Positions 12,464 to 39,248 of a stretch of 64,000 nt of DNA are shown in pieces. Below the pieces are notes generated by a model. The model worked only from the letters and a program-made list of their open reading frames with translations. It was not told the origin of the DNA and searched no databases. The position numbers and the translations under genes were made by a program. The stretch comes from a bacterium (GTDB taxonomy: Bacteria; Patescibacteriota; Minisyncoccia; Phycocordibacterales; Zambryskibacteraceae): the NCBI GenBank assembly GCA_030649135.1, contig JAUSGI010000002.1, forward strand, positions 6,294 to 70,293, read 5' to 3'. Position 1 is the first letter of the stretch. Every line of letters begins with the position of its first letter.

Positions 12464-12477
12464 ATCATATAGGAAAA

Positions 12478-12507: not shown

Positions 12508-12515
12508 AGGTTAGA

Positions 12516-19672: not shown

Positions 19673-19686
19673 ATATAGCAATAATA
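19650..19686. repeat. Direct repeat copy 1 (about 32 bp) covering the 5-prime UTR and first codons of a methyltransferase gene
   Basis: TTTTAATATAGTGTTTCATATATAGCAATAA recurs at 20535-20571. Both downstream genes start MKHYIKK. Confidence 0.7.
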
Positions 19687-20557: not shown

Positions 20558-20571
20558 ATATAGCAATAAGC
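20535..20571. repeat. Direct repeat copy 2
   Basis: Same 32-bp string as at 19650-19686. Confidence 0.7.
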
Positions 20572-24122: not shown

Positions 24123-24133
24123 TTCGGTTTATT

Positions 24134-25813
24134 TTACATCGTTTGATCACTTTTCTCAACGACAAAAATTAGACTCAAACCAAAACCTAGATTAATTTTG
24201 TTTTCAATATATTTGAACCAAAAATTCAAGACCTTAAAAAAAATGCCCTTTTTATTCTTGCCCCCCCTAATACTTTCAAAATGAGATTCTCTCTTTAAAA
24301 CTTTATACAAAATCCAATAAGGCAGAACTCCAAGCATATTCCAATATCTCACTTTTATTATTTTCAGCCCCAAATCTTCAAGCTCACGCGAAAGCTCTTT
24401 TTTGCTAAAGCGCCTAAAATATCCCATCATCTTATCTCTCGAGCCATATAGCGAAGGGAGTGCCGGAACCACTAAAATCAATCTCCCCTCTTTATTTAGA
24501 AGAGAGATGGCCTTTATGAGATTTTTTTTGTAGTCTTCAAGGCATTCCAAAACATCAATCATGATAATGTTGTCAAATCTCTTCTGGGAATCATACTGCT
24601 CAATAGAGACTTGATTAATGTCCAATTTACCAAAAAACTTTTCCGATAAATCAACCAATTTTTTATCCGGTTCTATCCCCTTCACCTCTATGTTCTTTTG
24701 GAGAGCCTTGGAAACCAAGAGCCCCAGTCCTGCTCCGATATCAAGAAGATTACCTTTTCTTAAGAAATTTAGAACAAAATCAGCCAGATTATTATTTCTA
24801 AAATCCTCTTCGGGGTTATTAAGATTTGAGTAAAATTCTGTGTGTGTTTTAGCTTGGTAGTCAAAAGTTCTTTTACCAAAAAAATTTCTATACCAAAAAG
24901 CCCAAACAAAAAACAGGAAAGAAAAAAGGATGATTTGGATATGGAGAATAAAACTCAGGTTGAAAGCATCCTCTATACTGACACTTAAAAGGACGAGTCC
25001 ACCGGCCACCGTTCCCTCAAACGCTCCAAAGTTTCCAATTAGATTGATGGGAATTAAACTGGCTAAAGCCGGGAAGACTCCAATAAACGCCGCCTCTATA
25101 AGAGAGAAATCAAACCCGGCAGAAAGTAATATCACCAAGACAAAGAGTGTGTCTAAAACCCAAACAAAAAGCGAGAGTGTGGCAAGAATAGCTAATCTTT
25201 TGAAATTCTTAATCTGCTCAAGAGCGAGAAAGGTTTCTGCCATAATCCGAGAAAATTTATTTAGGAACGAGTTTTTGAAAGAAAGACCGGAAAAAAATCT
25301 ACTTAATTCATGTCGATAAAAAACAATACCCCAAAGGATGACCACGCCAGATATTAAAATAGACACGATAAAAGTTAATGGGGTTGATGCTAAAAAACTT
25401 GGATTCTGACGAAAAATAAAAAAACCTGATATTAAAAAAAAGGTCAATACTATTAAAAGGTCGAAAACTCTAGCCAGCACGAGCGAAGTTACATTTTCTC
25501 CATTCGAGATATTCTTTTCTTCATTAACCATATAAAGGTACGTTATTTCTCCGGATCTAAAAGGCAATATGTTGTTCCAGAAACTATGTATGGAGACTAT
25601 ACTCAATAGTTTTTTTAGGCTAATTTTATTTCTTAGGACAAAACGAAAACGTAAAGTTTTAGCTACCAAATTTAAAATATACAGAAAGAAAGCCAGGACA
25701 ACTATAACGGGATTAATATTTTTAAGAATTTCAAATAAACCACTATCACCACTAAATCGCCATAATAAGTAAGCGACAATAACTGTAGTGGCTGCGGTTG
25801 CAATAATCTTCAT
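24134..25813 (-). CDS. Fusion protein: flippase-like/UPF0104 (lysyl-PG-synthase-type TM) domain plus C-terminal SAM methyltransferase
   Basis: The N-terminal 8-10 TM region has UPF0104-like features. The C-terminal part carries LLDIGAGLGLL and LILVVP methyltransferase motifs. Confidence 0.55.
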   Translation of the reverse strand: MKIIATAATTVIVAYLLWRFSGDSGLFEILKNINPVIVVLAFFLYILNLVAKTLRFRFVLRNKISLKKLLSIVSIHSFWNNILPFRSGEITYLYMVNEEKNISNGENVTSLVLARVFDLLIVLTFFLISGFFIFRQNPSFLASTPLTFIVSILISGVVILWGIVFYRHELSRFFSGLSFKNSFLNKFSRIMAETFLALEQIKNFKRLAILATLSLFVWVLDTLFVLVILLSAGFDFSLIEAAFIGVFPALASLIPINLIGNFGAFEGTVAGGLVLLSVSIEDAFNLSFILHIQIILFSFLFFVWAFWYRNFFGKRTFDYQAKTHTEFYSNLNNPEEDFRNNNLADFVLNFLRKGNLLDIGAGLGLLVSKALQKNIEVKGIEPDKKLVDLSEKFFGKLDINQVSIEQYDSQKRFDNIIMIDVLECLEDYKKNLIKAISLLNKEGRLILVVPALPSLYGSRDKMMGYFRRFSKKELSRELEDLGLKIIKVRYWNMLGVLPYWILYKVLKRESHFESIRGGKNKKGIFFKVLNFWFKYIENKINLGFGLSLIFVVEKSDQTM

Positions 25814-26856
25814 AGAGAAATGTGTCTGCCCCGGCTACGCATCGACTCTGAAGCTTTTTCAAGAAGATGGACCACTTGCTCTCCAAAAAATCCATCTGTT
25901 ACCGGTACTTTGTTTGATAAAATTAAATCTATAAAAGCAGCGCAGGCAGATTTAAGAGGTTCGTCATCGTAAGAGACGCCCGGAAGCTCATCACCTTTCC
26001 CGCCTAAAAAATCTTCAATACAAGCATCGAGAGCGCGCGATGGGGAATAACTTTCTTCCGTAGGATAGATTCGAGCCGTTCTTCCGGCAAAACTTCCTTC
26101 GTAGATAATCGTTTTCTCCTTACCTACAATACTGGCTCGGGCAGCCTTAGGAACATGGAGTCCTCGCACAGTCTGGTCTTTCCAAGCCAATTTAATTTCC
26201 GAACGAGTACCATCCTCAAAATGAACCTCCCCCTCAAGAGCCGACGGCGTTTGTGTATCTGGTATTCGTTCAATAATATTCATATGAAGTGAAACAGGTT
26301 TTTTGCCTATCAAAAAAAGCATAGAAGAAAAGGCATGGGGCCCAGAATCCCATAAAACGTCCGGCCCTTGGGGTTTTGCTCGAGCTCCGAGCCACTCAAA
26401 ACGAGAATGATAAATTTCTCCAAGCTTACCTTCATCAATTAGTTTTCGTTTTTCTATAAACACAGCGTCGTGGCAAAAGGTATGGTCGATAAAAATATTT
26501 AAGTGTTTCTTTTTGGCCAGATTATTAAGAAGGACTGCGCCCTTTTTTGTCACAGTCATTGGCTTTTCTATGTAGACATGCTTTCCTGCTTCAAGCACTT
26601 GGCGAGCAATATCAAGATGGGTGGCCGGTGGAGTAACGACAATCACGGCGTCTACCTGATGCTTGGAGTTATCCAGAAGTTCACTTATTTTTGTTGTACC
26701 TTTTATGCCAGAAACCTTCTCAGCCTCACCTAAAAGACCGGGGTCAAGGTCACAAATAACGGTCACTTTGGCCTGGGGTATGGATTGAAATTTATCAATT
26801 AGCTTCGGCCCCCAATACCCTAAACCAACTATTCCTAGATTTACCGTATTTTTCAT
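25810..26856 (-). CDS. Gfo/Idh/MocA-family NAD(P)-dependent oxidoreductase
   Basis: N-terminus LGIVGLGYWG and the EKP motif. Confidence 0.75.
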   Translation of the reverse strand: MKNTVNLGIVGLGYWGPKLIDKFQSIPQAKVTVICDLDPGLLGEAEKVSGIKGTTKISELLDNSKHQVDAVIVVTPPATHLDIARQVLEAGKHVYIEKPMTVTKKGAVLLNNLAKKKHLNIFIDHTFCHDAVFIEKRKLIDEGKLGEIYHSRFEWLGARAKPQGPDVLWDSGPHAFSSMLFLIGKKPVSLHMNIIERIPDTQTPSALEGEVHFEDGTRSEIKLAWKDQTVRGLHVPKAARASIVGKEKTIIYEGSFAGRTARIYPTEESYSPSRALDACIEDFLGGKGDELPGVSYDDEPLKSACAAFIDLILSNKVPVTDGFFGEQVVHLLEKASESMRSRGRHISL

Positions 26857-26860
26857 ACTT

Positions 26861-27763
26861 CTATCTGAAAGTCTTAATAACGAATTTAGGATTCTCTCTG
26901 CAATCTATAAATCTTCCCAGATTCCAAATGACGCTTAAAAGAGGCAGTATGATAATGATAAGTATGGATGAAGGCCAAAAGCCACCAGTAAGAACACCGC
27001 TTATGAGTAATAACCCAATAAATATTGTAAAGTAAATAGTTTTTTTTCTAATATTCTCAAGAGACTCCTGGTTCCTTTTTCTGATAAAAGGAACCACGAG
27101 GATGTCATTCATGATAATAAAGATTCTTTCTAGCCCGTAATGAGACTTGCCGGCCAGTCTGACTCTGTCTGGTACTTGTACTTCTGTAAAATCTTTCGGA
27201 TCAATATCATATATTACAGGAGAGAATCTGTTATTAAAACCTTTCGGTGTGTAATAATTTTTTATCACATCAGAACGATAAGCTTTAAGAGTGCACCCTG
27301 TATCGTGAACGGAAAAACCGGTGACCAGCGAAATAAGCTTGTTGGCAACTACCGATGGTATCACGCGATCAATAAGACCGATGCGTTTTTCTCTCCGACC
27401 ACTGACAACTTTGAAGCCGTCATTTATTTTGTTGACTAAAACTGGTATAAAACGCGGGTCATTCTGAATATCGCCATCAATAGTCACAATCACCTTACCT
27501 CGAGCTTTAGAGACGCCGGCGTAAACGGCCCAATTTTCCCCAACATTAAACTCTAAATCACAATAATGAAAATTATTGTCGTCTCTTCCGCGAATTTGCT
27601 CTAAAACTTTAAGGGTATCATCGTTTGAAAAATCGTTAACAAAAATTATTTCATAGCCCTTGTTATAAACGTCGAGAGATTCCTTTATCTCTTCATATAG
27701 CTGCATGGCATTACCTTCCTCATCATGCATTGGGACTACTACTGATATTTCAAGGTCATTCAT
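26861..27763 (-). CDS. GT2 polyprenyl-phosphate glycosyltransferase (GtrB/ArnC/DPM1-like) with C-terminal TM helices
   Basis: Motifs VVVPMHDEEGN, VNDFSNDDT and DGDIQNDP, followed by two C-terminal TM helices. Confidence 0.8.
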   Translation of the reverse strand: MNDLEISVVVPMHDEEGNAMQLYEEIKESLDVYNKGYEIIFVNDFSNDDTLKVLEQIRGRDDNNFHYCDLEFNVGENWAVYAGVSKARGKVIVTIDGDIQNDPRFIPVLVNKINDGFKVVSGRREKRIGLIDRVIPSVVANKLISLVTGFSVHDTGCTLKAYRSDVIKNYYTPKGFNNRFSPVIYDIDPKDFTEVQVPDRVRLAGKSHYGLERIFIIMNDILVVPFIRKRNQESLENIRKKTIYFTIFIGLLLISGVLTGGFWPSSILIIIILPLLSVIWNLGRFIDCRENPKFVIKTFR

Positions 27764-27775
27764 TTACACAATAAA

Positions 27776-28879
27776 TTACTGCTTAAAAAAGTCCTTCACG
27801 ACCGAGATAGTATACTCGATCTCCTCTTCAGTCAACTCAGCGAAGACGGGCAGAGCAATATTATCTTTTGAATATTGCTCCGCTCTGGGGAAAGAGCCAG
27901 CCGGAAGCTTGGCATGACTCCACGCTTCTTGAGTATGTAGAGGATATGGGTAGTAGCTCCCATTGCCTATTTCCTTTTCATCCAAATATTTTTTGAAAGC
28001 CTCTCTATTATTGGCGTAAAATATTCCTTGATGATAGACGGATTCTCCGTTGATAGATTCCGACATGGGAACGAGTGGCAAGTCTTTAAAAGCTTCTTTG
28101 TATCTTTTATAGATATCGACCCTTCTTTTGTTTCTCTCATCAAGAACTTTCAGCCCAAATAATAACCAAGCGGCTTGAATTTCGTCTAGCCGGCTGTTCC
28201 AACCATAGATGGTATGGAGATACTTGCTCTTCTCACCATGGTGAGCCAGCTGTACGATTTTTGAGTACAAATTGCTATCATCGGTAGTAATAGCCCCGGC
28301 ATCCCCGACTGCTCTAAGATTTTTAACCGGACCAAGACTGAAAACGCCAATCTTACCCAGACTACCAACTTTTTTACCATTGATCGATGCCCCTTGAGCT
28401 TGAGAAGCATCTTCAATGACAGGCACCCCGCTCTCTTCGGAAACCTTGAGGATTTCCTCCATTGCCGATGGGACGCCGAGCAGGTGGACCACTAAAATGG
28501 CCTTGGTCTTTTTGTTGATCGCTTTTTTCAATTGCTCCAAATCAGGTCCGTAATCATTTTCACTTTTATCAACTAGAACGGGAGTGGCTCCAATGGCCAT
28601 GATCGGTTCGATATCAGCGATGAAAGCATTGGCGTGAGTGATGACTTCATCGCCATGGCCGATATCAAAGGCTTTCAGGCTCAAAAAAATGGCATCCGTA
28701 CCTGAGGCCACACCCAAACAATGTTTAACGCCTAAATATTGGGAAAATTTTTCCTCAAAATCTTTTTTATAAGGACCGTTTAAAAGACGCCCGGACAAAA
28801 TAATGCCCCGAACTTGTACCAGCCATTCTTCAGCAATTTCTTTATTAAATCTCGTTAAATCCAGCAGTGGTACTTTCAT
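27776..28879 (-). CDS. DegT/DnrJ/EryC1/StrS-family PLP-dependent sugar aminotransferase
   Basis: GVASGTDAI and the conserved lysine region SLGPVKNL. Confidence 0.85.
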   Translation of the reverse strand: MKVPLLDLTRFNKEIAEEWLVQVRGIILSGRLLNGPYKKDFEEKFSQYLGVKHCLGVASGTDAIFLSLKAFDIGHGDEVITHANAFIADIEPIMAIGATPVLVDKSENDYGPDLEQLKKAINKKTKAILVVHLLGVPSAMEEILKVSEESGVPVIEDASQAQGASINGKKVGSLGKIGVFSLGPVKNLRAVGDAGAITTDDSNLYSKIVQLAHHGEKSKYLHTIYGWNSRLDEIQAAWLLFGLKVLDERNKRRVDIYKRYKEAFKDLPLVPMSESINGESVYHQGIFYANNREAFKKYLDEKEIGNGSYYPYPLHTQEAWSHAKLPAGSFPRAEQYSKDNIALPVFAELTEEEIEYTISVVKDFFKQ

Positions 28880-28891
28880 ATTAATTATAGT

Positions 28892-29845
28892 TTACTGCTT
28901 ATTTCGCCAATAAGTAATCGCTTTGTTAAGGCCTTCGTCTAATGAATATCGCGCTTGCCACCCCAAAACTTTTTTAGCCTTAGAAGAATCGAGGGAAAGA
29001 TAATCTTCAGCTATTGGACGCGTGGGATAATCTGGCGGGAAACGTTCTGCAATAATTTTCCCCTTAAACCCAAGCATGGATTTAATTTTTTTAGCTAGCT
29101 CCATCATTGTAATGCCAGAGCCATTGCCAAAGTTAAAAGTCCGATTGACTTCTTTTGATCTAAGCAAGGTTAGATACGCATTGACGTGGTCGTCAACATA
29201 CATCAAATCTCTCACTGCTTTCGGGGTGCCGATATAGACATCTTCCCCTGCCAACATTTTAGTAATGAGATACTCGACGATGAAACCTGCATTATGTTTT
29301 CTGCCGTAGGTATTGCATGGACGGAGAATTATATACGGTAAACCAAAAACTTTGCTAACCATTTCTAGATAGTATTCGCAAGCCGCCTTGGAGACCGCAT
29401 AAGGGCTACCGGGATGCAATAAAATATTTTCTTTAAAAGGTCTCTTCTCCTTCTGGAAACCATATGTCTCCATGGTCGAGGCAAAAATAAATTTCTTTAA
29501 TCTCGGAAGGTTAAGAGCAGCATGTATTAGATTAATAGTGCCAAGGTAATTTGCCTCATTAAATTCATGTGGCATCTCAAAAGAGTCGCGTACGGCAGTT
29601 TGGGCGCCGATATGCAAGATATAATCTGGCGCAAATTTTTTAACTACATTTTGTAGGGCATAATAATCAGTAAGGTTGGCCCTTAAAAGCGTTACCTTGT
29701 GAGCAATATCGGCAATTGGATCAAGGTCGTTCTTATTCGATGAAATACGGACTAAACCAGCAACTCGATACTTGCTGTCTTTGACTAGCTTACGAGCTAG
29801 TTCGCTGCCAATAAAACCGGTAATGCCAGTAATAAGTATCTTCAT
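28892..29845 (-). CDS. NAD-dependent nucleotide-sugar epimerase/dehydratase
   Basis: Rossmann N-terminus TGITGFIGSEL and the YxxxK motif. Confidence 0.8.
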   Translation of the reverse strand: MKILITGITGFIGSELARKLVKDSKYRVAGLVRISSNKNDLDPIADIAHKVTLLRANLTDYYALQNVVKKFAPDYILHIGAQTAVRDSFEMPHEFNEANYLGTINLIHAALNLPRLKKFIFASTMETYGFQKEKRPFKENILLHPGSPYAVSKAACEYYLEMVSKVFGLPYIILRPCNTYGRKHNAGFIVEYLITKMLAGEDVYIGTPKAVRDLMYVDDHVNAYLTLLRSKEVNRTFNFGNGSGITMMELAKKIKSMLGFKGKIIAERFPPDYPTRPIAEDYLSLDSSKAKKVLGWQARYSLDEGLNKAITYWRNKQ

Positions 29846-29846
29846 A

Positions 29847-30551
29847 CTAAGTTTGTCTATGGTTCTTTAGTATCTTTTCAGCCTCTTTTAAATCTTTTTG
29901 GTCGTTAACGGTGGTGAATAAGCCCTTATGCACATAAGACCTAAGTTTGCCCATCTTAGCCAGCTTCTTAAAAGTAGTTCTTTCAATTGACCCGTGCTTT
30001 GGTAAATATTTTAAAATTTCTTTATCAAACATATAGATACCAGTGTTCATTAAAACGTCTTCTAAGATTGGTTTCTCGAGAAAATCCTCAATCGAGTGGT
30101 CATGACCGAGTTTAACCACGCCATACGGATGGCGAGTAGGGCAAGTTACAATCGTAGCCACGGGCCTATATTTTTTATGATGTAGCTCTAAATCTCTTAA
30201 AGACAGGTCGGTAAATTGGTCAGAATTCATAGCAAAAAAATATTTTGGCAGATGGATATTCTCCAAAACACTACGGAAGGCATCGCCGGTTTCTTTAGCT
30301 CCACTGTGGTCATTATAAATAATACGAATACCGAAATTCTTGCCATTTCCCAAATGCTTCATCAGAACCTCTTTCTTGTAATCCACGCTTAAGACTAAGC
30401 GTTTTATTTTATTTTTCCTAAGCCAGATAAGAATCCACTCTATCATGGGCTTATCCAAGACCATCACCATAGTCTTGGGTTTATCTAGTGTGAAGGGAAG
30501 CATTCTAAATCCCTTGCCTCCTGCTAAAATAATGGCGGTTTCTACTTTCAT
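29847..30551 (-). CDS. Sugar-1-phosphate nucleotidyltransferase (glucose-1-P cytidylyl/thymidylyl-transferase-like)
   Basis: NTP_transferase signature AIILAGGKGFRMLPFT. Confidence 0.75.
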   Translation of the reverse strand: MKVETAIILAGGKGFRMLPFTLDKPKTMVMVLDKPMIEWILIWLRKNKIKRLVLSVDYKKEVLMKHLGNGKNFGIRIIYNDHSGAKETGDAFRSVLENIHLPKYFFAMNSDQFTDLSLRDLELHHKKYRPVATIVTCPTRHPYGVVKLGHDHSIEDFLEKPILEDVLMNTGIYMFDKEILKYLPKHGSIERTTFKKLAKMGKLRSYVHKGLFTTVNDQKDLKEAEKILKNHRQT

Positions 30552-30610
30552 ATTATCTTTAAATGGCCAATTTCTTGCTTAGTATATACTAGTGTACTAA
30601 TATGTAAATT

Positions 30611-31831
30611 ATGAGTAATAGTCAACCTAAAATGAGAGTGCCCTACGGTCTTTCTGTGCATGGTCAAGAAGAGATCGATGCTGTAGTGAAAGTTTTGAGG
30701 GGCAATACTGCCTTGGGCGACCGTACGAGAGAATTTGAAAAAAAAATAGCAAAAATGTTTGGTAAGAAATACGGGGTCATGGTCAATTCTGGATCATCGG
30801 CTAATTTACTGGCGTTTGAACTCTTACGTCTACCCAAGGGTAGCGAAGTTATAACTCCCATTCTAACGTGGGCTACTACTGTCGCTCCAATTGTCCAAAA
30901 GGGTCTTGTCCCAGTCTTTGTAGATGTGGACCCGTACACCTTTGTCGCCAATATAAAACAGGTAGAAAAAGCGATTACCAAAAAGACCAGAGCTCTCATG
31001 ATTCCGTCTCTCATGGGTAATATTCCTGATATGGAAAAACTGGCCAAACTAGCGAAGAAGTATAGACTTTATTTTATTGAAGACTCGTGCGATACGCTCG
31101 GAGGAAAATACAAAAGGAGGCCAACGGGAAGTTACTCCCATATCACTACCACTAGTTTCTATGGCTCCCACATTATTAATGGCGCCGGTGGGGGTGGCAT
31201 GATTTGCGTAAGCAACCCAGAATGGATGAGGCGCCTTACAGTTCTGCGCCTTTTTGGTAGGCAGTCTTCCCTCTTTGGTGAAAAAGAGAATTCCGAAGCC
31301 CTGGAAAATCGTTTCAGACAGAAGCTTGGTGGCATACCATACGATAGTAAATATCTCTTTAGTGAACTCGGCTACAACATGATGCCCCTGGAAATCTCTT
31401 CCGCCTTCGCTCTAGAGCAACTAAAGAAACTGCCCAAATTCGCCAAGATGAGAAGTAAAAATTTTGACAATTTATATAAATTTTTTAAGAACTATAAAAA
31501 ATACTTTTCCCTTGCTGTTCAGACGTCTCAAACTGAAACCATCTGGCTAGCCTTTCCTCTCGTCATTAATAATGGAGCACCTTTTACGCGTATGGAGCTG
31601 GTCACCTTTCTAGAGACAAACAATATACAAACAAGACCTATATTTACCGGGAATATTTTAAGACAACCAGGATTTAAAAATATCTCTCATCGCCTAGCGC
31701 AAAAAAGCTATCCTAATACGGAACACGTCATGCGTAATGGCTTAGTCATAGGTAGTCATCATGGTTTGAGTCCACGGCAAATTGCCTATTTAAAAGAAAA
31801 ATTTGTGGAATTTTTGTCTGATTACAAATAA
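30611..31831 (+). CDS. DegT-family PLP enzyme (sugar aminotransferase or CDP-4-keto-6-deoxyglucose-3-dehydrase-like)
   Basis: Matches DegT-family architecture; it sits beside a cytidylyltransferase. Confidence 0.7.
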   Translation: MSNSQPKMRVPYGLSVHGQEEIDAVVKVLRGNTALGDRTREFEKKIAKMFGKKYGVMVNSGSSANLLAFELLRLPKGSEVITPILTWATTVAPIVQKGLVPVFVDVDPYTFVANIKQVEKAITKKTRALMIPSLMGNIPDMEKLAKLAKKYRLYFIEDSCDTLGGKYKRRPTGSYSHITTTSFYGSHIINGAGGGGMICVSNPEWMRRLTVLRLFGRQSSLFGEKENSEALENRFRQKLGGIPYDSKYLFSELGYNMMPLEISSAFALEQLKKLPKFAKMRSKNFDNLYKFFKNYKKYFSLAVQTSQTETIWLAFPLVINNGAPFTRMELVTFLETNNIQTRPIFTGNILRQPGFKNISHRLAQKSYPNTEHVMRNGLVIGSHHGLSPRQIAYLKEKFVEFLSDYK

Positions 31832-31850
31832 GCCCTATGGATTAAAGGGG

Positions 31851-32546
31851 TTATTTCCCAAACCTTAATTTAATCAAAGTAAATATATAAGTCAGCATAA
31901 AGATAAACAGATTTCTTTTAGTCTTTCCAAACATCCTTTGGTTGAAAGTGAATGGTATTTCTTTTATTTTCAGGTTTTTATTATTTTTCTTCAACTTGAA
32001 GAGAATCTCTTCTACGATATCGAAATTATTGCAATATAAGTTAAGCCTTTTGAGGTCTCCTGCCTGATATAATTTAAAACTATTGGAGACATCCTTGCAG
32101 TTTAAACCCAGAACCAAAGAATATACTAGGTTAACCACGAGACTCATGAAGATTAACACTTTGCTATTTTTTGTAGCACCTCCCGCCACATAACGAGAAG
32201 CGATAACTACATCAAAATTATTTCTATATTTGTAAAGCTGACTTATAAATTCCGGATCATGAGAACCATCTGCGTCCATGAAGATAACGTACTCCCCCAT
32301 GGCCCTGGCGATGCCAGTGCGCACGGCATTACCGAAGTCGTTTCCTTTTTCGCGATTTACATACTTAATATGAGAGTCAAGACCAGAACAATAATCTTTA
32401 GTTCCGTCCATTGGCTCCATGGTATCAACAATAATAATTTCGTATGACGGCTCAGTTTGGTCCAATGTGGAACACAACCGAGGTAAAATGACTTTCAAAT
32501 TATCCTCTTCTTTATAAGATGGGATTATAACGCTTAAAGTTATCAT
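31851..32546 (-). CDS. GT2 glycosyltransferase (DPM1-like)
   Basis: Motifs SVIIPSYKEEDN, IIVDTMEPMDGT and MDADGSHDP. Confidence 0.75.
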   Translation of the reverse strand: MITLSVIIPSYKEEDNLKVILPRLCSTLDQTEPSYEIIIVDTMEPMDGTKDYCSGLDSHIKYVNREKGNDFGNAVRTGIARAMGEYVIFMDADGSHDPEFISQLYKYRNNFDVVIASRYVAGGATKNSKVLIFMSLVVNLVYSLVLGLNCKDVSNSFKLYQAGDLKRLNLYCNNFDIVEEILFKLKKNNKNLKIKEIPFTFNQRMFGKTKRNLFIFMLTYIFTLIKLRFGK

Positions 32547-33436
32547 TGCATTTTATTTTTATACCGAAGGTAATAATCTAATGTTTTTTGAAGCCCTGCA
32601 TCTAAACTAGTCTTTGGTTTTATCAAATTATTAAACTTGTCTAGTTTCGTAGGCTTATCCTTGTTATTTAAATCTACATGGATTTTTAACCGCTTGCCAA
32701 TTAATCTCATAATTTTTGAAACGAGTTTCTTTACCTCAATAGTCTCGTCATTGCCAATGACGAAAAAGTTTTTGGGGCTGTTTCTTATCGCTATCAAATT
32801 AGCGACAAAATCATCAATATAAACAAACTGAAGTCTACGCTTGCCATTCGAACGTAGGACCACGCCATCTTTGCTTTCAGCCGTTTTCATTATAAAAAAC
32901 GGGATTACTTGAGCAACCTCTGGGTTAAAGTCATTGCCTGGACCGTAAACTGCCGGTGGACGAACTATTTTAACATTTATCTTGGTCTGGGCCTCAAATG
33001 ATTTAAGGATTAGCTCATTCATGTATTTACCAATGACATAACCGTCAATTTGTATATCTTGAGATAATGCGTATTCAACAAGAACTGAACTAACATAGAT
33101 GATTGTCTTAATTTTGCTAGTCTTGGCCGCTTCTAAAAAAGTTAGCAGGGGCAAGGTATTATTAAAAATAGCATCAAATGGCCATCCAGTGTGAACAGCC
33201 ACATTTTTCTTAAAGGCCGCTAGATAATAGACAGCATCAATATTTTTAACAATTTTTTGGCAAAATTTCTTATTCCTCAAATCTCCATAAAAGACTTTTG
33301 CTCCAGAACATTTGAATTTTTCATCCCGCGAAACTAGAAATAAGTTGCTATTACCAACTAATTTTTTGGTCAAAGCGTGACCAACGAAACCATTTGCTCC
33401 CGTGACCAAGATATTTTGTTTTTTCTGTCTAGTCAT
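32543..33436 (-). CDS. NAD-dependent epimerase/dehydratase
   Basis: Rossmann N-terminus VTGANGFVGHAL. Confidence 0.7.
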   Translation of the reverse strand: MTRQKKQNILVTGANGFVGHALTKKLVGNSNLFLVSRDEKFKCSGAKVFYGDLRNKKFCQKIVKNIDAVYYLAAFKKNVAVHTGWPFDAIFNNTLPLLTFLEAAKTSKIKTIIYVSSVLVEYALSQDIQIDGYVIGKYMNELILKSFEAQTKINVKIVRPPAVYGPGNDFNPEVAQVIPFFIMKTAESKDGVVLRSNGKRRLQFVYIDDFVANLIAIRNSPKNFFVIGNDETIEVKKLVSKIMRLIGKRLKIHVDLNNKDKPTKLDKFNNLIKPKTSLDAGLQKTLDYYLRYKNKMQ

Positions 33437-33551
33437 CCGAATATTTTGCTAAGTCTAACAAATCATAGACTTATTAAAAACCGTTGACTTTAAATATGTA
33501 ATATGTTATTATAGTAAAAGAGTGTAAATCAAGTTTGGGAAAGGACTTCTC

Positions 33552-34310
33552 ATGGGTGGAGTAGTGGTCGTCACAACTACGTTATACAACAGCATCGAGG
33601 AATTACGGTTTCGCCTGGCCTGCGATATGGTCAGGGTGGCCGTAGCCGATGGGTACAAAGTTGTCATCGGTGACGACTCGTCTATTATTCCCGAAGTGGC
33701 GGGAACTTTCCGTAGTCTCGGCGCGAATGTCTATCCCCGGCACCACAAGGGCGTGGGGTCAGGACGACGGGAAGCATTCTTCCACGCCTGGGAAGTGTCG
33801 GTGCGGGAGAACTGCTCCGCCATCGTCTGGACCGAACCTGAGAAGGTCGACCTGATCCGATGGGTCGGGAAAATTATCAGGCCCCTCGAGAATGGAGAGG
33901 CTGACATCGTCATTCCCGCACGCACGGAAAGGAGCTGGCAGACCTGGCCAGCATTCCAGCGGGAAAGCGAGACGCGGGCCAACGGTGTCTACAACGAGGT
34001 TTTGGGTACGAGAGGCTTCGACCCGATGTTTGGGCCGGTGGCTTTCACTCTCGACTTCGTGCCAGAATTTGCTTTCTGTAACCCGAAGGCGCTCGGAGTG
34101 CCGGACACCTACGTCCAGCATTACGCACCGATCATCGCCCGACATCATGGCGCCCGGGTCGTGTCGGTTGAGGTCGACATGACCTATCCGCCCGAGCAGC
34201 GAGCCGAGGAAGAAGGAGCGGCGAAAGAGACCATGCTCGAGAAACGCAAGTGGCAGCTCGGGAGCCTCTCTGAGGCCTACCGAACCTTAGCGAAAATTTC
34301 TCCCCGATGA
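33552..34310 (+). CDS. GT-A-fold (GT2/DPM1-like) glycosyltransferase-like protein, GC-rich
   Basis: Motifs VVIGDDSS, HHKGVGSGRREAFFHA and EADIVIPAR. Upstream lies TTGACT-N17-TATTAT plus an AAAGGA SD. The GC is clearly above its flanks. Confidence 0.45.
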   Translation: MGGVVVVTTTLYNSIEELRFRLACDMVRVAVADGYKVVIGDDSSIIPEVAGTFRSLGANVYPRHHKGVGSGRREAFFHAWEVSVRENCSAIVWTEPEKVDLIRWVGKIIRPLENGEADIVIPARTERSWQTWPAFQRESETRANGVYNEVLGTRGFDPMFGPVAFTLDFVPEFAFCNPKALGVPDTYVQHYAPIIARHHGARVVSVEVDMTYPPEQRAEEEGAAKETMLEKRKWQLGSLSEAYRTLAKISPR

Positions 34311-34372
34311 AACGTGTCCAGTAGTGCATCACAATGGCGACCGCAGTAATACACGCGGTCGCCATTTTCACT

Positions 34373-36079
34373 TTAGAGAGGCAGGGACAAAATCACAAAT
34401 CTCCCGTCATCATACAGGGCCTTGTTTAAAGAGATGCGCTCAAGATTATCGTGAGCACGATCGAGGATGAGATATTTAACGTTAAATTGTTGGAGGAGGG
34501 TGGCTTGATCTTTTTTGACGGTCTTAAAACGCTCTACCAGCGTTTTGAAATATTCTTCCCCGCGGAGAGTAATCGAATCGGTACGTGGCGGACATTGGCG
34601 AGGACCAGCAAAACGCACCCAAACATCGCAGAGCCAGGCGCGCCGGTTTTGAGCTAGAGGCTCTAGTTCTGACGGCCCGGCGCCAGCGTAAAGCCCTAGA
34701 CCACTCTTTATGTCTTCGATCGTCAAAACATCCATGCTATGCGAGACGAGATATCTATCCTCAAGTTCGGGCCCAGAAATATTATGAAGTACCGTACCTT
34801 CTGTAAAGAGTGGGTAGTGCCGAGTCATAATCGGTATATATTCCGAAATTGAATCGTTCGCCCAAATCACAGATTGTTCTGGCACATTTTTATCTAGCCA
34901 TTTTAGCGGGCCAGCATAGGTCTGTAGATCGGCGGTATAATCACTACCACGTTCACCAAAAAACTTGAAAAAATCTAGCCCATGAGGAAGGTTTCTCACC
35001 ACTCCTACCGAGAGTATTGAGAGAAGAATCGCTACTACTATGTATTTGGTTCTGTGGGTTTTTAAAGTTTCTGAGAAATACCATTCATACAAACCGACTC
35101 CTAAAATTATCACCATCCATAAAATGACAAAACGTCCGACATGCACGCCAAGAGTCAGTTCGACGCCAGTAATGATATTTAAACACAAGCTAACGAAGAG
35201 TGCCGCACCTGTCGAGAACCAAAATACTTTTTGTTTTAAAGGCACCAGCCATGTCAAAAGCATTCCGACTGCCAACCAACGACCATAGAAAAAAACTTCT
35301 ATCGATGGAACGCGAGTGTAAACAAGACCAATGCGACTAAGGGTTTCAAAGTAATAAGGGCCCTGCATCTGCATCAAGGTATAGAAACCGAAAGGGATAA
35401 GGAGGAGTGCGGTAAAAATACCGCAGGTCAGAAGCGAGCGTAACTCTTGGAAACGTCTGGTAAACAAAAACCAGAAAAAAATAAAGGCAAAACTTAACAA
35501 GACAATATAAGAAAGATACGAGTAGACATAAAAGGCAGAAGCCGCAGCGAGCGAAAGCCAAACTATCCTCTTTCTCTCATGCGGCTCGTACAAGAACTTC
35601 AGAAGGGCAATGAGAAACATGAGAAAGAAAGGATAAACTATCTGCATAATGGTCGGCCGAAGCATGAGTGAATATAAACTGATATAGAGAAACACCGACC
35701 ACAGGAATGCCCACCCTCTCGGCAAACGCAAGAGCCGGAGCAGGGTAAAGGACAGAGCTAAAAATACAAAACTCCACGCGAACATATTAATCATAACGGC
35801 GAGATTAAACGGCACCCCAAGAAGCATTGGAATCGCTGAGACAATATCCGGCAAGAAAAACGCTGGAGCCAAATCCTTGCGGTATTCATAGACATACGGA
35901 TTGCCGAGGAGCGGGTATCCATCCACCACTTCATGCATGCGCGCATAGTAATACAAACTGTCGGTAGAACCTCTGGGTAAGACGCCCTGCCAGTTTCGCC
36001 ATCCCCCAACTTCGTATATGACAAAAATTGCTGGAATTAGTGTGGCCACCAAAGCGACGGCTAGGAACAATTTCTTCAT
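34373..36079 (-). CDS. Large polytopic membrane protein, putative GtrC/GT-C-type glycosyltransferase (paralog of 21767..23515)
   Basis: About 12 TM helices plus a C-terminal domain. It overlaps the GtrA-like gene by 4 nt. Confidence 0.45.
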   Translation of the reverse strand: MKKLFLAVALVATLIPAIFVIYEVGGWRNWQGVLPRGSTDSLYYYARMHEVVDGYPLLGNPYVYEYRKDLAPAFFLPDIVSAIPMLLGVPFNLAVMINMFAWSFVFLALSFTLLRLLRLPRGWAFLWSVFLYISLYSLMLRPTIMQIVYPFFLMFLIALLKFLYEPHERKRIVWLSLAAASAFYVYSYLSYIVLLSFAFIFFWFLFTRRFQELRSLLTCGIFTALLLIPFGFYTLMQMQGPYYFETLSRIGLVYTRVPSIEVFFYGRWLAVGMLLTWLVPLKQKVFWFSTGAALFVSLCLNIITGVELTLGVHVGRFVILWMVIILGVGLYEWYFSETLKTHRTKYIVVAILLSILSVGVVRNLPHGLDFFKFFGERGSDYTADLQTYAGPLKWLDKNVPEQSVIWANDSISEYIPIMTRHYPLFTEGTVLHNISGPELEDRYLVSHSMDVLTIEDIKSGLGLYAGAGPSELEPLAQNRRAWLCDVWVRFAGPRQCPPRTDSITLRGEEYFKTLVERFKTVKKDQATLLQQFNVKYLILDRAHDNLERISLNKALYDDGRFVILSLPL

Positions 36080-36492
36080 GAGTTTTCATTATGGATGCTA
36101 TCGGGAGAAAAAACCAGGTATTTAAACACAAAAAAACTATAGACGGCGACCAGACCGAGAACAAAAAATTGAGAGATTAGGTAATGAATATGAAGCATAT
36201 CCACACTTATGTATAGGAGTAAAGCATTAACGCCTAGATTTAAAATCTGAATTCCTAGATAAACGAGAGACTGCTGTCTGATTTTCTCTTTTGTATAGTC
36301 GTTGAAAGTGAAAAACTTCTGCATCATGAAACTCACGGCAACCGCCACGATGAAGGCTACGACGGAAGCCAGCAAATACCACATATAAAAAAAGTGTACC
36401 AAGATAAAAAGCATGGTTAGATTTATAACTGCGGCAGAACCACCGGAGATAAGATAGCGAATGGCGCGATGATTAAGGATGATTTTTATCAT
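36076..36492 (-). CDS. GtrA-family small membrane protein (polyprenyl-P-sugar flippase-like)
   Basis: 138 aa with 4 TM helices and YLISGGSAAVINL. Confidence 0.7.
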   Translation of the reverse strand: MIKIILNHRAIRYLISGGSAAVINLTMLFILVHFFYMWYLLASVVAFIVAVAVSFMMQKFFTFNDYTKEKIRQQSLVYLGIQILNLGVNALLLYISVDMLHIHYLISQFFVLGLVAVYSFFVFKYLVFSPDSIHNENS

Positions 36493-36532
36493 TTGGGTAT
36501 CTGTAAGGCGCTATGATAGTATAAACGCTAAG

Positions 36533-37090
36533 ATGATAAAAGAATACCTAGAAAAATCCTTGGCGGTAAAAAATGCCGCGCTGACCGATCAAAGCTTCCT
36601 TGAAAATGCGGAGAAAGCGGGACGGCAAATTTATGACTCGCTGATGGCCGGTAAACATATTTATATCGCCGGTGTTGGCGGAGCAGCCGCAGAGTCGCAA
36701 CATTTCTCCGCAGAACTCTTGGGTAAATACTCTGCGATGAGGAGAGCTTTTCCGGCAGTAGCCTTAACTACCGACTCCTCAATGCTTACTGCTTGGGCAA
36801 ATGATACCAGCTTTGACTTTATATTTTCGCGCCAACTTGAAGGCCTTGGAAAAGAAGGGGATATATTTGTCGCTCTCTCCGCGGGAGGAAACTCACCTTG
36901 TATCGTAGAAGCTCTTAAGACGGCAAACTCTATCGGAATGATCTCCATTGGTCTTTTGGGTAAAAGTGGCGGAAAAGCCAAAGAAATGTGCACCATTCCC
37001 ATCGTCGTCCCTTCAGATGTTACTTCTCACATTCAAGAAACCCATCTCATGCTTGTTCACTTTTTCTGCGAATATTTAGAACCGCAGTAA
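36533..37090 (+). CDS. gmhA: SIS-domain phosphoheptose isomerase (sedoheptulose-7-P isomerase)
   Basis: Motifs GVGGAAAESQHFSAEL and ALSAGGNS. The start is taken at ATG 36533; the track start at 36479 overlaps the GtrA gene. Confidence 0.7.
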   Translation: MIKEYLEKSLAVKNAALTDQSFLENAEKAGRQIYDSLMAGKHIYIAGVGGAAAESQHFSAELLGKYSAMRRAFPAVALTTDSSMLTAWANDTSFDFIFSRQLEGLGKEGDIFVALSAGGNSPCIVEALKTANSIGMISIGLLGKSGGKAKEMCTIPIVVPSDVTSHIQETHLMLVHFFCEYLEPQ

Positions 37091-37098
37091 ACAAATAC

Positions 37099-37127
37099 TT
37101 GACATTTGCATAGTATACAGATATAAT
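37099..37127 (+). promoter_or_regulatory. Perfect consensus sigma70-type promoter TTGACA-N17-TATAAT
   Basis: TTGACAtttgcatagtatacagaTATAAT, with a strong SD AAAAGGAGG 6 nt before the ATG at 37171. Confidence 0.55.
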
Positions 37128-37170
37128 CGGGAAAGAACTCATTCCCCTACACTACAAAAGGAGGGCACAC

Positions 37171-37848
37171 ATGCCCACGATTCTCAAGGCCATTCTTTGT
37201 GATGTCGACGGAGTGCTCGTCGACACAGAGGGTCTGCATTTTCAGGCGTGGGATTGGATTTGTCGTGATATCGGAGGACAACCCCTCACTCAGGAAGAAC
37301 ACGCTACTCTCGTTGGGAAAGACGGGCCAGTCATCATGAGGGAACTTTCCCAGATGAAGGGGTTCGGCGGCGATCTGACCAAACTCAATGACCGTTGCCG
37401 AGAGAAGTACATCGAGTTACGGCAGACTGGGAACATCCCAGTCATCATGGAGAACGTTATGCTTCTTCGTGAGTTTGCCGAGCTGTACTCGGGCTTAAGG
37501 TTCGCGGCTGTTTCTTCCGATACTCACGACCATATTCAGCAGAACCTTCGGGTAGCTGGGCTTGAAAATTTCTTCGAACTGGCAGTTTCCGCCCATTCAG
37601 ACGGTTTGAAGAAGAAGCCCGCCCCCGACGTGTGGTTGGTGGCGATGAAGAGACTCGGAGTCGCTCCAGAAGAATGCCTAGCTTTCGAAGATTCACCAGC
37701 CGGAGTCGAATCTGTCACCAGCGCCGGGGTCAGGGTAGTGGCGCTACCCAGCCCCTCAACTGTATCCTGTAGCTTCCCGACCGCTCACACGGTCATCAAA
37801 CCAGGAGAAAGGAAAAACGCCAGAGAAATCCTTGCGCGCGTGATGTAG
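37171..37848 (+). CDS. HAD-IA hydrolase (beta-phosphoglucomutase/phosphatase-like), GC-rich
   Basis: DVDGVLVDTE (DxD), the motif II S/T and the K/DD motifs AFEDSPAG. Confidence 0.75.
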   Translation: MPTILKAILCDVDGVLVDTEGLHFQAWDWICRDIGGQPLTQEEHATLVGKDGPVIMRELSQMKGFGGDLTKLNDRCREKYIELRQTGNIPVIMENVMLLREFAELYSGLRFAAVSSDTHDHIQQNLRVAGLENFFELAVSAHSDGLKKKPAPDVWLVAMKRLGVAPEECLAFEDSPAGVESVTSAGVRVVALPSPSTVSCSFPTAHTVIKPGERKNAREILARVM

Positions 37849-37860
37849 TGTGCTCACCAA

Positions 37861-37890
37861 GAGCCGGGTCCTGACCCGGCTCTTTTCAAT
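37861..37890 (+). terminator. Hairpin GAGCCGGG-tcctga-CCCGGCTC followed by TTTTCAAT
   Basis: 12 nt downstream of the HAD gene stop; it also abuts the stop of the convergent 37890 gene. Confidence 0.6.
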
Positions 37891-38381
37891 TACGATTTTT
37901 CTTTATAAATTTTAAGAATCTTTTCTATAATATTTGTCGTCGACTGAACACGGCCAGGAATAATTACCACCTTATCTACATTCTCGCGCACAAAGTCTGC
38001 TTGAATATTTTGTTCCACAGTATAATCTCCACCTTTAGTATAAATGTCAGGGTGGACTGCTTTCAAAAAAGTGCCCGGGTCTTTTTCATCAAAAATATGA
38101 ACGTAGTCGACGCAAGCCAGAGCTGCCACCACTTCCGCGCGTTCACGTTCAGGAATGATTGGACGAAGTTTTGATTTGTATTGTCTTACCGAAGCATCTG
38201 AATTTATACCCACTACTAGAATATCACCAAGCAATTTACTTTCTTCTAGAAGTATTTTCTGGCCGATGTGGAATACATCAAAAGCACCGTTGGTAGCTAC
38301 AATTTTTTTACCATGCTTTTTGAGTTCCTCGACTCTTGCTTCAAGCTCGGAGAGAGAAACAATTTTGTGAGCTGTTTTCAT
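37890..38381 (-). CDS. Heptose-1-phosphate adenylyl/nucleotidyl-transferase (HldE domain II / RfaE-II-like cytidylyltransferase fold)
   Basis: Start reassigned to ATG 38381 (MKTAHKIVSL). Carries the HxGH-type motif NGAFDVFHIGQ and the region GINSDASV. Confidence 0.7.
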   Translation of the reverse strand: MKTAHKIVSLSELEARVEELKKHGKKIVATNGAFDVFHIGQKILLEESKLLGDILVVGINSDASVRQYKSKLRPIIPERERAEVVAALACVDYVHIFDEKDPGTFLKAVHPDIYTKGGDYTVEQNIQADFVRENVDKVVIIPGRVQSTTNIIEKILKIYKEKS

Positions 38382-38409
38382 ATCAGACAGTATACAGCTG
38401 AAAAAATAC

Positions 38410-38437
38410 TTGACAAGTAGGCTAAATCTATTATAAT
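38410..38437 (+). promoter_or_regulatory. Perfect consensus sigma70-type promoter TTGACA-N16-TATAAT
   Basis: TTGACAagtaggctaaatctatTATAAT, then SD GAGGAG 6 nt before the ATG at 38477. It shares the AATACTTGACA prefix with the promoter at 37099. Confidence 0.55.
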
Positions 38438-38476
38438 CAGAAGCAGACACAATCAATATAAACGCGAGGAGAACGT

Positions 38477-39211
38477 ATGAACTTCGCTGAGTTCTGCTCA
38501 AAACAAAGCAGTATCTACGACGACATGCGGAAGCAGGAATGCGAGGAATCACGGATCACAGGGATGATGGAAGATCCCGGGCTCGTCACTAGGAGAGGCG
38601 GGTTTTTTCTCTCCCTCATTCACCCGCCTGAGTTTGCTCAGAAAGTAGCGGATTTCTCCGCCAAGGTTGGCGCCCTGATGCCAGCAATGGTTTACAGCAA
38701 CAAGGAGATACACACGACCGTCGGGTCAATTTCCACTTCGGTCATCCCACACTTCTATTTCGACGGAAACCGTGAGGACCATGCGCACCAGCTTTCCGTC
38801 ATCGAACGCGTGGCGGAGGAGACAGCAAAGAGAGTGAAAGCGGGGGTATGCAAAATTGGTTTTATTACGCCCTGCATCCTTCTGCCGAATCTCATCATCG
38901 CGCCGGGCGAAGCGAATCAGAGCGTCTTCGAAGTGACGACCGCGCTGACCGAATTCGGTACACAGATGGGGTTAGCAATGGCCCCATGCAAAAACGGCCA
39001 TGTGACAGTCAACCGCTTCACCGAAGCGAAGAGTGTAGGGGAAATATCCGATATTCTTAGGTTGATGGAGAAGGAGCCACCCTTTGGTGTCAGTCATCCG
39101 ATCGGGATCGCAGCGGGTTACACACTGCGTCACGAATCCGAACGAAATGTTACTGACCTTCGCGAAACACCCGGGCACTTCCACGGCACCAAGTTCTTCC
39201 GGTTCCAATAA
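38477..39211 (+). CDS. 2H phosphoesterase superfamily protein (LigT / cyclic phosphodiesterase-like), GC-rich
   Basis: Two H-x-T-x motifs, EIHTTVGS and NGHVTVNR, about 95 residues apart. Confidence 0.45.
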   Translation: MNFAEFCSKQSSIYDDMRKQECEESRITGMMEDPGLVTRRGGFFLSLIHPPEFAQKVADFSAKVGALMPAMVYSNKEIHTTVGSISTSVIPHFYFDGNREDHAHQLSVIERVAEETAKRVKAGVCKIGFITPCILLPNLIIAPGEANQSVFEVTTALTEFGTQMGLAMAPCKNGHVTVNRFTEAKSVGEISDILRLMEKEPPFGVSHPIGIAAGYTLRHESERNVTDLRETPGHFHGTKFFRFQ

Positions 39212-39215
39212 AGAC

Positions 39216-39246
39216 GGCCACCTCGAAGTTTGAGGTGGCCTTTTAT
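39216..39246. terminator. Bidirectional hairpin GGCCACCTC-gaagttt-GAGGTGGCC with T-tracts on both strands
   Basis: Sits between the convergent 2H-phosphoesterase and transaldolase genes. Confidence 0.65.
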
Positions 39247-39248
39247 CC

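Follow-up and report, generated by a model that had tools for sequence, protein, structure and literature searches.

Two predicted GT-C-fold membrane proteins of an unannotated family in candidate Gtr/Arn-type glycosylation modules of a Patescibacteria surface-glycan cluster

A 64,000-nucleotide stretch of a Patescibacteria genome (hereafter the window) is one very long surface-glycan cluster with many transferases, and it probably encodes two multi-component transmembrane glycosylation modules of the Gtr/Arn type. The modules are built around two polytopic membrane proteins, A (568 amino acids, positions 34373-36079) and B (582 amino acids, positions 21767-23515), both encoded on the minus strand. 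Judging from structure prediction, A and B are most likely membrane glycosyltransferases with a GT-C fold that, with lipid-sugar synthases and a GtrA-family protein, glycosylate the cell surface, working from the outer side of the membrane. What would be new is the protein family, a candidate addition to the GT-C superfamily; the mechanism itself is familiar.

Gene content of the two candidate modules

The coordinates of all open reading frames (ORFs) named in an earlier note on this DNA were confirmed in the window. Module A would consist of protein A, a GtrA-family small membrane protein of 138 amino acids (36076-36492, minus strand; PF04138, E = 1.2e-22) with four hydrophobic segments in a hydropathy analysis, and a DPMS/AglJ-like GT2 (31851-32546, minus strand; PF00535, E = 2.8e-28) that is a candidate polyprenyl-phosphate sugar synthase. 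As previously reported, the GtrA gene overlaps the gene for A by 4 nt (ATGA), and the gene for B overlaps by ATGA that of a cytoplasmic GT4 glycosyltransferase of the GT-B fold (20541-21770, minus strand; PF00534, E = 9e-38), so that GtrA is predicted to be translationally coupled to A and the GT4 to B. The GtrA-family protein is a candidate polyprenyl-P-sugar flippase or a partner of A, the flippase role of GtrA proteins being debated (PMC7389260). The DPMS-like GT2 lies two genes from A and is overlapped by the gene of which it is the downstream neighbor, encoding a NAD-dependent sugar epimerase/dehydratase (32543-33436, minus strand; PF01370, E = 6e-33). The gene convergent to A (33552-34310, plus strand) encodes a soluble protein of 252 amino acids whose resemblance to GT2 (GT-A) enzymes is weak (PF00535, with an E-value of 2.4e-3 that is below cutoff) and which has no NCBIfam or PDB match; the same position in relatives is occupied by a DPMS-like GT2.

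Module B would consist of an ArnC/GtrB-like GT2 (26861-27763, minus strand; PF00535, E = 5e-25), which is a putative polyprenyl-phosphate (amino)sugar synthase, one or more methyltransferases, protein B, and the GT4. A SAM-dependent methyltransferase (23502-24122, minus strand; PF13489, E = 5e-19) shares 14 nt with the beginning of the gene for B, and a second SAM methyltransferase domain is fused to an LPG_synthase_TM ("flippase-like") domain (24134-25813, minus strand; PF03706, E = 2e-34, residues 10-299; PF13489, E = 6e-14, residues 342-487; TIGR00374, 1.3e-20). A GFO/IDH/MocA-type sugar oxidoreductase (25810-26856, minus strand; PF01408, E = 1e-21) is also encoded here. Pfam matches identify a DegT aminotransferase (27776-28879, minus strand), a 4,6-dehydratase (28892-29845, minus strand), a sugar-1-P nucleotidyltransferase (29847-30551, minus strand), and another DegT aminotransferase (30611-31831, plus strand); by this domain content, 27776-31831 is a set of nucleotide-amino-sugar genes, which may feed the adjacent GT2 of module B.

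Based on their closest relatives, both GT2s are assigned to the polyprenyl-P-sugar synthase type. For the GT2 at 26861-27763, the nearest solved relatives in the PDB are ArnC (8.5e-29) and GtrB (1.2e-17), and the ArnC model NF007986 is matched at 3.4e-35, below the equivalog cutoff. The nearest solved relative of the GT2 at 31851-32546 is DPMS from P. furiosus (5mlz; 1.3e-21, residues 3-226), and its best NCBIfam match is AglJ (3.5e-13, below the equivalog cutoff). C-terminal transmembrane (TM) helices had been assigned to both enzymes; this holds for the former, with hydrophobic segments at residues 243-261 and 267-285, and is weaker than claimed for the latter because its hydrophobic tail spans only ~13-17 amino acids. 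The former is the likely donor-maker for B and the latter the likely donor-maker for A.

An unannotated family with a predicted GT-C fold

The description of A and B as clear paralogs was correct as to homology but overstated, because the two proteins are far apart: BLASTP aligned them at 28% identity over only 190 amino acids (E = 2e-7). An hhalign comparison of the A family (with B removed) against the B family gave a probability of 99.9 and an E-value of 6.9e-36 over 527 columns at ~23% identity, and the A-family HMM recovered B from the window at 7e-32, suggesting an ancient paralogy with full-length similarity at the profile-profile level. Searching the window with the A and B HMMs returned A and B only and no third copy; two Pfam-less ORFs considered as candidates (10757-12658 and 49950-50891) were unmatched by these HMMs, and the translation of the first lacks a run of TM helices. 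Orthologs of A and of B at 60-87% identity each were found in many other MAGs, showing that neither is a chance ORF. The proteins had been called giant, yet their lengths are ordinary for GT-C. The ARxxEVxDGxPxxGN block noticed earlier is indeed common to both, reading YYYARxHEVxDGHPxxGNPY in A and ARAREVQDGHPNFGNIY in B, and its E-x-x-D-G...G-N core is found in both proteins.

When A, B, and each of the 37 sequences in the A1 alignment were scanned against Pfam-A with hmmscan (E ≤ 1), no GT-C or other family was matched, and A and B left the GT39, GT83, GT85 (AftA), STT3, PMT/PMT_2, YfhO, and GtrC-type models unmatched. An NCBIfam scan of both proteins was likewise without match, as was a search of the whole PDB sequence set with a profile (E ≤ 10), and the family is therefore considered unannotated. 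The lack of matches to GT39, GT83, STT3, and YfhO agrees with the earlier suggestion of an undescribed GT-C-like family, and the literature covered (GT-C and Patescibacteria, CPR and GtrA, new GT-C families from AlphaFold) does not describe it. The superfamily comprises ~2,200 clusters at 50% identity, whose members are named "hypothetical proteins" and often occur as several paralogs per genome. Named homolog sources are nearly all Patescibacteria/CPR, in line with the proposed lineage restriction.

The predicted structures of A and B fit solved GT-C enzymes. AftA was the top match for A in the structure search, and AglB and STT3 were among the best matches. All of the best matches are active glycosyltransferases, with higher Z. 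True transporters reached a Foldseek probability below 0.1, and a transporter reading was rejected on this search. Protein A has 11 predicted TM helices, within the range of 8-13 expected for the GT-C superfamily, an N-terminus inside, and an extracytoplasmic C-terminal domain of ~200 amino acids; the soluble C-terminal domain pointed out earlier is real, and in the predicted structures it is a globular domain of the AglB/STT3 type. Clusters of Lys and Arg (MKK, RLLRLPR, ERKR, TRR, KQK, and KTHRTK) fall on alternate loops of A, and the N-terminal fusions found in relatives carry cytoplasmic domains (GT2, methyltransferase) and GtrA, which together give the loop with the motif, and likewise the C-terminal domain, an extracytoplasmic position.

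Conservation was scored across 119 diverse representatives, with the first extracytoplasmic loop (EL1) defined as residues 25-90 of A. The GT-C interpretation had called for conserved acidic residues in this loop, typically the site of a DxD motif or a modified form of it in GT-C enzymes, and they are present: the acidic share is 97% at E65, 84% at D40, 77% at E50, 76% at D78, and 62% at D53. Nearly invariant polar or charged residues in outward loops are E65, R141, Q146, R249, and H313. Given their conservation and topology, the EL1 acidic residues and these outward-loop residues may be catalytic.

An unlikely alternative is that A and/or B are divergent relatives of AglB, STT3, and PglB, the oligosaccharyltransferases (OSTs), and, in place of adding single sugars, transfer a pre-assembled polyprenyl-P(P)-linked oligosaccharide en bloc to a protein (a pilin, S-layer, or surface protein) or other acceptor, the AglJ/DPMS-like GT2 starting the lipid-linked glycan and the coupled GT4 extending it. 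The AglB and STT3 structural matches, the AglJ match of the GT2, and the coupling of B to the GT4 are all consistent with such a role, as is the segment PLKWLxxNxxExSVIWAN, which follows the last TM helix where OSTs carry WLxxNTP...WWDYG. However, an equivalent of WWDYG is absent across the 119 representatives, in which V404 is the only invariant position of SVIWAN, W406 is kept in 49%, A407 in 55%, and Asp or Asn at 408 in 65%. OSTs also carry an acidic DxD/ExD pair in the TM3-TM4 loop, whereas the same representatives have R141/Q146 and no conserved acidic residue there. The STT3 Pfam is unmatched even at E ≤ 1, AftA is a single-sugar transferase, and direct GT2-GT-C and GtrA-GT-C fusions best suit monosaccharide lipid donors. 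Less likely again is that the family is a Patescibacteria-specific offshoot of AglB/STT3 that has lost the sequon-binding motif WWDYG and constitutes a new bacterial OST type, attaching GtrA-delivered polyprenyl-monophosphate glycans to surface proteins or pili. An AglJ/DPMS-like GT2, either fused to the protein or encoded next to it, would start these glycans, and a GtrA subunit in physical attachment would hand them over; if so, the GtrA-GT-C fusions would show GtrA to be a donor-delivery subunit of the GT-C protein and not a free-standing flippase.

It is improbable that A and B have the GT-C fold but are not glycosyltransferases, acting instead as a scaffold or lipid-binding subunit, as a polymerase/ligase-type protein, or as a lipid-linked-sugar transporter. 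PIG-U/GAB1 are non-catalytic scaffold or lipid-binding subunits of this kind in GPI transamidase, and Pfam, NCBIfam, and PDB searches gave no sequence-level link between A or B and characterized enzymes. Against this stand the higher Z of active glycosyltransferases, the low Foldseek probability of true transporters, the outward position of E65, R141, Q146, R249, and H313, as in a catalytic/donor-phosphate site, and linkage and fusion to GT2s of the polyprenyl-P-sugar synthase type.

Fusions and gene neighborhoods in relatives

Elsewhere, A-subfamily proteins are fused to GtrA (n = 7, at the N-terminus), to a DPMS-like GT2 (n = 3; P0251, P0266, and P0274), or to a methyltransferase (n = 1; P0250), and the eleven fusions were counted as independent events. 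Neighborhoods were sampled at 23 A-family species-level loci (30-62% protein identity) and 18 B-family loci. A GT2 was present within 1 kb of the A-family gene in 16 of the 23 loci and within 5 kb in 20, while GtrA was adjacent or fused in only 6 and was never next to B. Methyltransferases were found within 1 kb in 12 of the 23 A-family and 5 of the 18 B-family loci. A GT4 directly follows the B-family gene in 7 of 18 loci, and the order ArnC-like GT2, methyltransferase, B, GT4 is repeated at loci L003 and L004. The fusions and the conserved GT2 adjacency strengthen the Gtr-like reading of the earlier note and point to functional coupling of GtrA, GT2, and GT-C; adjacency and fusion to polyprenyl-P GT2s further suggest that A and B use a polyprenyl-phosphate-linked sugar donor. 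It is very improbable that A and B operate independently of GtrA and the nearby GT2s, with these serving other steps of the cluster: proximity alone is weak evidence because the window is one very long multi-transferase glycan cluster, most related loci lack GtrA, and the DPMS-like GT2 is not immediately beside A, but the eleven independent fusions, the ATGA coupling of GtrA to A, and the retention of a nearby GT2 across such divergent loci argue otherwise.

The LPG_synthase_TM protein was considered as a conserved upstream neighbor of A and B. Domain coordinates showed that only its methyltransferase half is conserved in this position, and the idea of a conserved flippase neighbor was therefore dropped. 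Separately, heptose-nucleotide genes are present at the loci where GtrA lies near A. That A uses a heptose donor is only a lead, because a GT9 heptosyltransferase in 5 of 7 such loci and in the window explains these genes without A.

Proposed mechanism and comparison with known systems

From these data we infer the enzymatic activities, the pairing of GT2 with GT-C proteins, flipping by GtrA, and the acceptor. A membrane-associated GT2 at the cytoplasmic face would take the sugar of a nucleotide sugar and attach it to polyprenyl phosphate. The lipid-sugar would then reach the outer face, with GtrA the candidate for this step in module A; in module B, whose sole candidate is the non-conserved LPG_synthase_TM domain, it may be flipped by a shared flippase or, conceivably, by the protein with this domain. 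Finally, A or B would transfer the sugar to an extracytoplasmic acceptor using outward-loop residues (E50/D53/E65 of EL1, R141/Q146, R249, and H313), with the AglB-like C-terminal domain holding the acceptor, which we guess to be a wall or surface polysaccharide from the same cluster.

Patescibacteria (CPR) account for a large fraction of the diversity of bacteria, and their attachment to host cells likely makes surface glycans central to their biology, yet to our knowledge their envelopes are barely characterized. For ~2,200 clusters of "hypothetical proteins," the analysis provides a predicted fold together with a probable mechanism, and it names candidate catalytic residues of A and B. The natural fusions of GtrA, GT2, and methyltransferase to GT-C could help decide whether GtrA is a flippase or a GT-C partner.

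Compared with STT3, AglB, and PglB (GT66), the proteins lack WWDYG, the TM3-TM4 acidic pair, and a PF02516 match, and have 11 predicted TM helices whereas OSTs have 13. Mycobacterial AftA (GT85) together with the GtrA-family protein Rv3789 is another close system, but sequence identity is ~10%, the AftA Pfam is unmatched, the cluster lacks UbiA-type phosphoribosyltransferase and DprE-like arabinofuranose-donor genes, and donor synthesis here looks GT2-based. The Arn pathway consists of ArnB, ArnC, ArnE-F, and ArnT (GT83); in contrast, an ArnT/PMT_2 sequence match and an ArnE/F-type flippase are absent here, lipid A is not evident, and B comes coupled with a methyltransferase and a GT4. Multi-component (three-component) systems are defined by a GT-A C55-P-sugar synthase, a GtrA-type flippase, and a GT-C enzyme, and known examples are GtrA/GtrB/GtrC of Shigella and Salmonella phages and CsbB/GtcA/YfhO and GtlA/GtcA/GtlB of Firmicutes (PMC8035078). 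Unlike in these systems, the predicted GT-C proteins described here have no detectable similarity to GtrC types, YfhO, PMT_2, or any Pfam, possess an AglB-like C-terminal domain, can be fused to GtrA, GT2, or methyltransferase, frequently have a SAM methyltransferase as an extra component, and belong to a Patescibacteria organism; a GtrA component was found for module A only. As in the Gtr systems, however, a GT2 related to GtrB, ArnC, or DPMS, a GtrA-family protein, and a polytopic predicted GT-C protein with acidic residues in an outer loop are encoded by clustered, translationally coupled genes.

A new family with a predicted GT-C fold

The two large membrane proteins, A (568 aa, 34373-36079, minus strand) and B (582 aa, 21767-23515, minus strand), lie in open reading frames that the earlier note had delimited correctly, and both gene overlaps that it described are present. 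The stop codon of the gene for a 138-aa GtrA-family protein (36076-36492, minus strand; PF04138, E 1.2e-22) shares an ATGA with the start codon of A, and B shares an ATGA with a GT4 gene (20541-21770; PF00534, E 9e-38). A and B had been called clear paralogs; they are homologous, but only distantly so. Their BLASTP alignment spans 190 residues with 28% identity (E 2e-7). When B was left out of the A-family profile, this profile and that of the B family aligned across 527 columns (probability 99.9, E 6.9e-36). The proposed ARxxEVxDGxPxxGN-type block is real in both proteins, reading YYYARxHEVxDGHPxxGNPY in A and ARAREVQDGHPNFGNIY in B. A and B each have orthologues of their own in other metagenome-assembled genomes (60-87% identity), and 15 of 25 related loci contain both subfamilies. 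Hence the duplication that gave rise to them is ancient. No third copy was found in the window.

With thresholds as lax as E <= 1, no Pfam or NCBIfam model matched A, B, or any of the 37 family members aligned, in keeping with the suggestion that they belong to no familiar family, and no PDB sequence was matched by the family profile at E <= 10. AlphaFold2 runs on family alignments gave confident predicted models for both A (pLDDT 92.0, pTM 0.91) and B (pLDDT 88.8, pTM 0.89). When the B model was compared with solved structures, the scores were 18.1 for Pmt4, 17.9 for STT3B, 17.7 for AftA, and 17.1 for AglB, with sequence identity of about 10% in the structural matches to the A and B models. 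Foldseek returned concordant GT-C matches (STT3A/B, DPY19, AftA, and PglB at E 2e-6 to 1e-4) and matched transporters only at probability <0.1. The predicted fold, the lack of a sequence-family match, and conserved acidic residues in an outer loop support the reading of A and B as an undescribed GT-C-like family. They would form the GT-C component of the system, and they fall outside every sequence-defined family checked (GtrC types, YfhO, PMT/PMT_2, ArnT, AftA, and STT3). They make up a new family inside a known superfamily and a known pathway type. A literature search found no paper describing this family.

Searching 1.84 billion representative proteins with a family profile retrieved 2,187 members at E <= 1e-3, with 1,534 at E <= 1e-10. 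Homologues whose source organism is named come almost always from Patescibacteria/CPR, including Zambryskibacteria, Vogelbacteria, Falkowbacteria, Nomurabacteria, Magasanikbacteria, Curtissbacteria, and Paceibacterota, which agrees with the proposal of a lineage-specific family. A-family genes are also present in three TPA MAGs labelled 'uncultured Gammaproteobacteria' (loci L014, L015, and L016), labels that may be wrong; the GT2-methyltransferase-A order of L014 and L016 is the same as that of a Paceibacterota locus (L024). The novelty is moderate: the GT-C family is new and restricted to its lineage, and the mechanism proposed for it is a familiar one.

Predicted topology and conserved positions

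The model of A has 11 TM helices, and Lys/Arg clusters (MKK, RLLRLPR, ERKR, TRR, KQK, and KTHRTK) fall on every other loop. Some A-type proteins of other genomes carry N-terminal fusions to cytoplasmic GT2 or SAM methyltransferase domains, or to GtrA. Together, these two patterns put the N-terminus of A on the inner side of the membrane; the first loop (residues 25-90), which bears the motif, and the C-terminal domain are then on the outer side. Conservation was assessed across 119 representatives, one per 50%-identity cluster. Conserved acidic residues are present in the first extracytoplasmic loop, where Y44, G54, N60, P61, and E65 (97% acidic) are conserved, and D40 (84%), E50 (77%), D78 (76%), and D53 (62%) are further acidic positions. 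Conserved residues in the remaining outward loops are R141, Q146, R249, and H313 (99%), and those in the C-terminal domain are E438, R442 (100%), C484, and C496. The two cysteines, kept in approximately 81% of A-subfamily representatives and absent from B, suggest a disulfide in the extracytoplasmic domain of A, which would fit the presence of a DsbB-family gene (2158-2721, minus strand) in the window.

Oligosaccharyltransferases carry a DxD pair in the TM3-TM4 loop. Since the 119 representatives have neither an equivalent of WWDYG nor a conserved acidic residue in the TM3-TM4 loop, A and B are not typical oligosaccharyltransferases despite their AglB-like domain.

Partner genes and related loci

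Both GT2 genes match PF00535 (26861-27763, E 5e-25; 31851-32546, E 3e-28), and two hydrophobic C-terminal segments were found in the first, as had been claimed. Its nearest solved relatives are ArnC (8.5e-29) and GtrB (1.2e-17); those of the second are the dolichyl-phosphate-mannose synthase (DPMS) of P. furiosus (1.3e-21, residues 3-226), followed by GtrB and ArnC. All of these solved relatives are polyprenyl-phosphate glycosyltransferases. The nucleotidyltransferase, 4,6-dehydratase, two DegT aminotransferases, epimerases, and oxidoreductase encoded between and around these genes place the ArnC-like GT2 in an Arn-like amino-sugar context. A 252-aa soluble protein (33552-34310, plus strand) resembles GT2 enzymes only weakly (E 2.4e-3), and neither NCBIfam nor the PDB yielded a relative. 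Its gene is convergent beside A, at a position held in relatives by a DPMS-like GT2, and a homologue in L006 adjoins such a GT2. A fusion of an LPG_synthase_TM ('flippase-like', TIGR00374) membrane domain with a SAM methyltransferase (24134-25813, minus strand) occupies a position held in relatives by a methyltransferase only.

Sampling a single genome from each GTDB species yielded 25 loci; L001 brings the number to 26, and these contain 23 A-type and 18 B-type genes. Of the 23 A-type genes, 16 have a DPMS/ArnC-type GT2 no more than 1 kb away and 20 have one within 5 kb, while 12 have a SAM methyltransferase at up to 1 kb; GtrA is adjacent in four and fused in two. Seven of the 18 B-type genes have a GT4 within 1 kb, in six cases directly downstream, overlapping or at <=5 bp, and L003 and L004 repeat the order of the window, ArnC-like GT2, methyltransferase, B, GT4. 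Joint action of the three components is argued most strongly by fusions among the retrieved sequences (seven GtrA-A, three DPMS-like GT2-A, and one methyltransferase-A). GT2 homology, GtrA, gene linkage, and these fusions support the Gtr-type interpretation of the region.

The glycan cluster and a proposed pathway

A single long glycan cluster occupies the window from ~6.1 to 50.9 kb. Besides heptose-nucleotide genes, a GT9, several GT4 genes, and numerous methyltransferases, it encodes a Wzy_C-type ligase/polymerase, a membrane protein of 682 aa (6100-8148, minus strand; O-antigen ligase/PglL type) that could be a ligase or an O-oligosaccharyltransferase for the cluster's glycan, and an adjoining Wzx-like flippase (8048-9448). 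The heptose-nucleotide-pathway-like set (36479-40933) encodes a SIS isomerase, HAD phosphatase, cytidylyltransferase-like protein, transaldolase, and PfkB kinase. It adjoins GtrA and A in L002, L004, L007, and L021 and GtrA-A fusions in L001 and L012, and is absent from the related loci compared that lack GtrA. A GT9 co-occurs in L001-L004 and L021, and neither L007 nor L012 gave a GT9 match. A heptose is one possible donor for A. The GT9 heptosyltransferase-family gene of the window (41703-42860) and two methyltransferases neighbour a B12-binding radical SAM enzyme (42924-44450; syntenic in L004 and L007) and a choline/ethanolamine-kinase-like protein (45681-46430), a neighbourhood that hints at C-methylated or phospho-substituted sugars.

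GC content is 0.36 at 24001-26000 and 0.46-0.51 at 34001-40000, a shift that suggests a mosaic origin of the A module and heptose genes relative to the B module. Two adjacent ORFs on the minus strand (19127-19681 and 19688-20566) share an initial peptide, because a 38-nt direct repeat (19647-19684 and 20532-20569, 95% identical) extends over the start-codon region and the first ~11 codons (MLYMKHYIKK) of each. A cohesin-domain protein (51974-53257) and a dockerin-domain protein (54947-56287), which make an uncommon pairing in a CPR bacterium, are encoded between two IS200-like (Y1_Tnp) transposase ORFs (51060-51902 and 56399-57067).

In the pathway that we propose, a GT2 on the inner face would make a polyprenyl-P-sugar, which in the A module would be moved or handed over by GtrA, and A or B would then pass the sugar to an acceptor that the AglB-like domain holds outside the membrane. 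Methylation of the sugar, or of the lipid-linked intermediate, is suggested by the methyltransferase that recurs among the loci. Given the single long cluster, its own polysaccharide is the most economical guess for the acceptor, with a protein as the main alternative. The GtrA-GT-C fusions bear on the debate over whether GtrA proteins are flippases or act as partners recruiting GT-C enzymes such as AftA (PMC7389260). The system would operate in the manner of the Gtr, Arn, CsbB/GtcA/YfhO, and AftA/Rv3789 systems.
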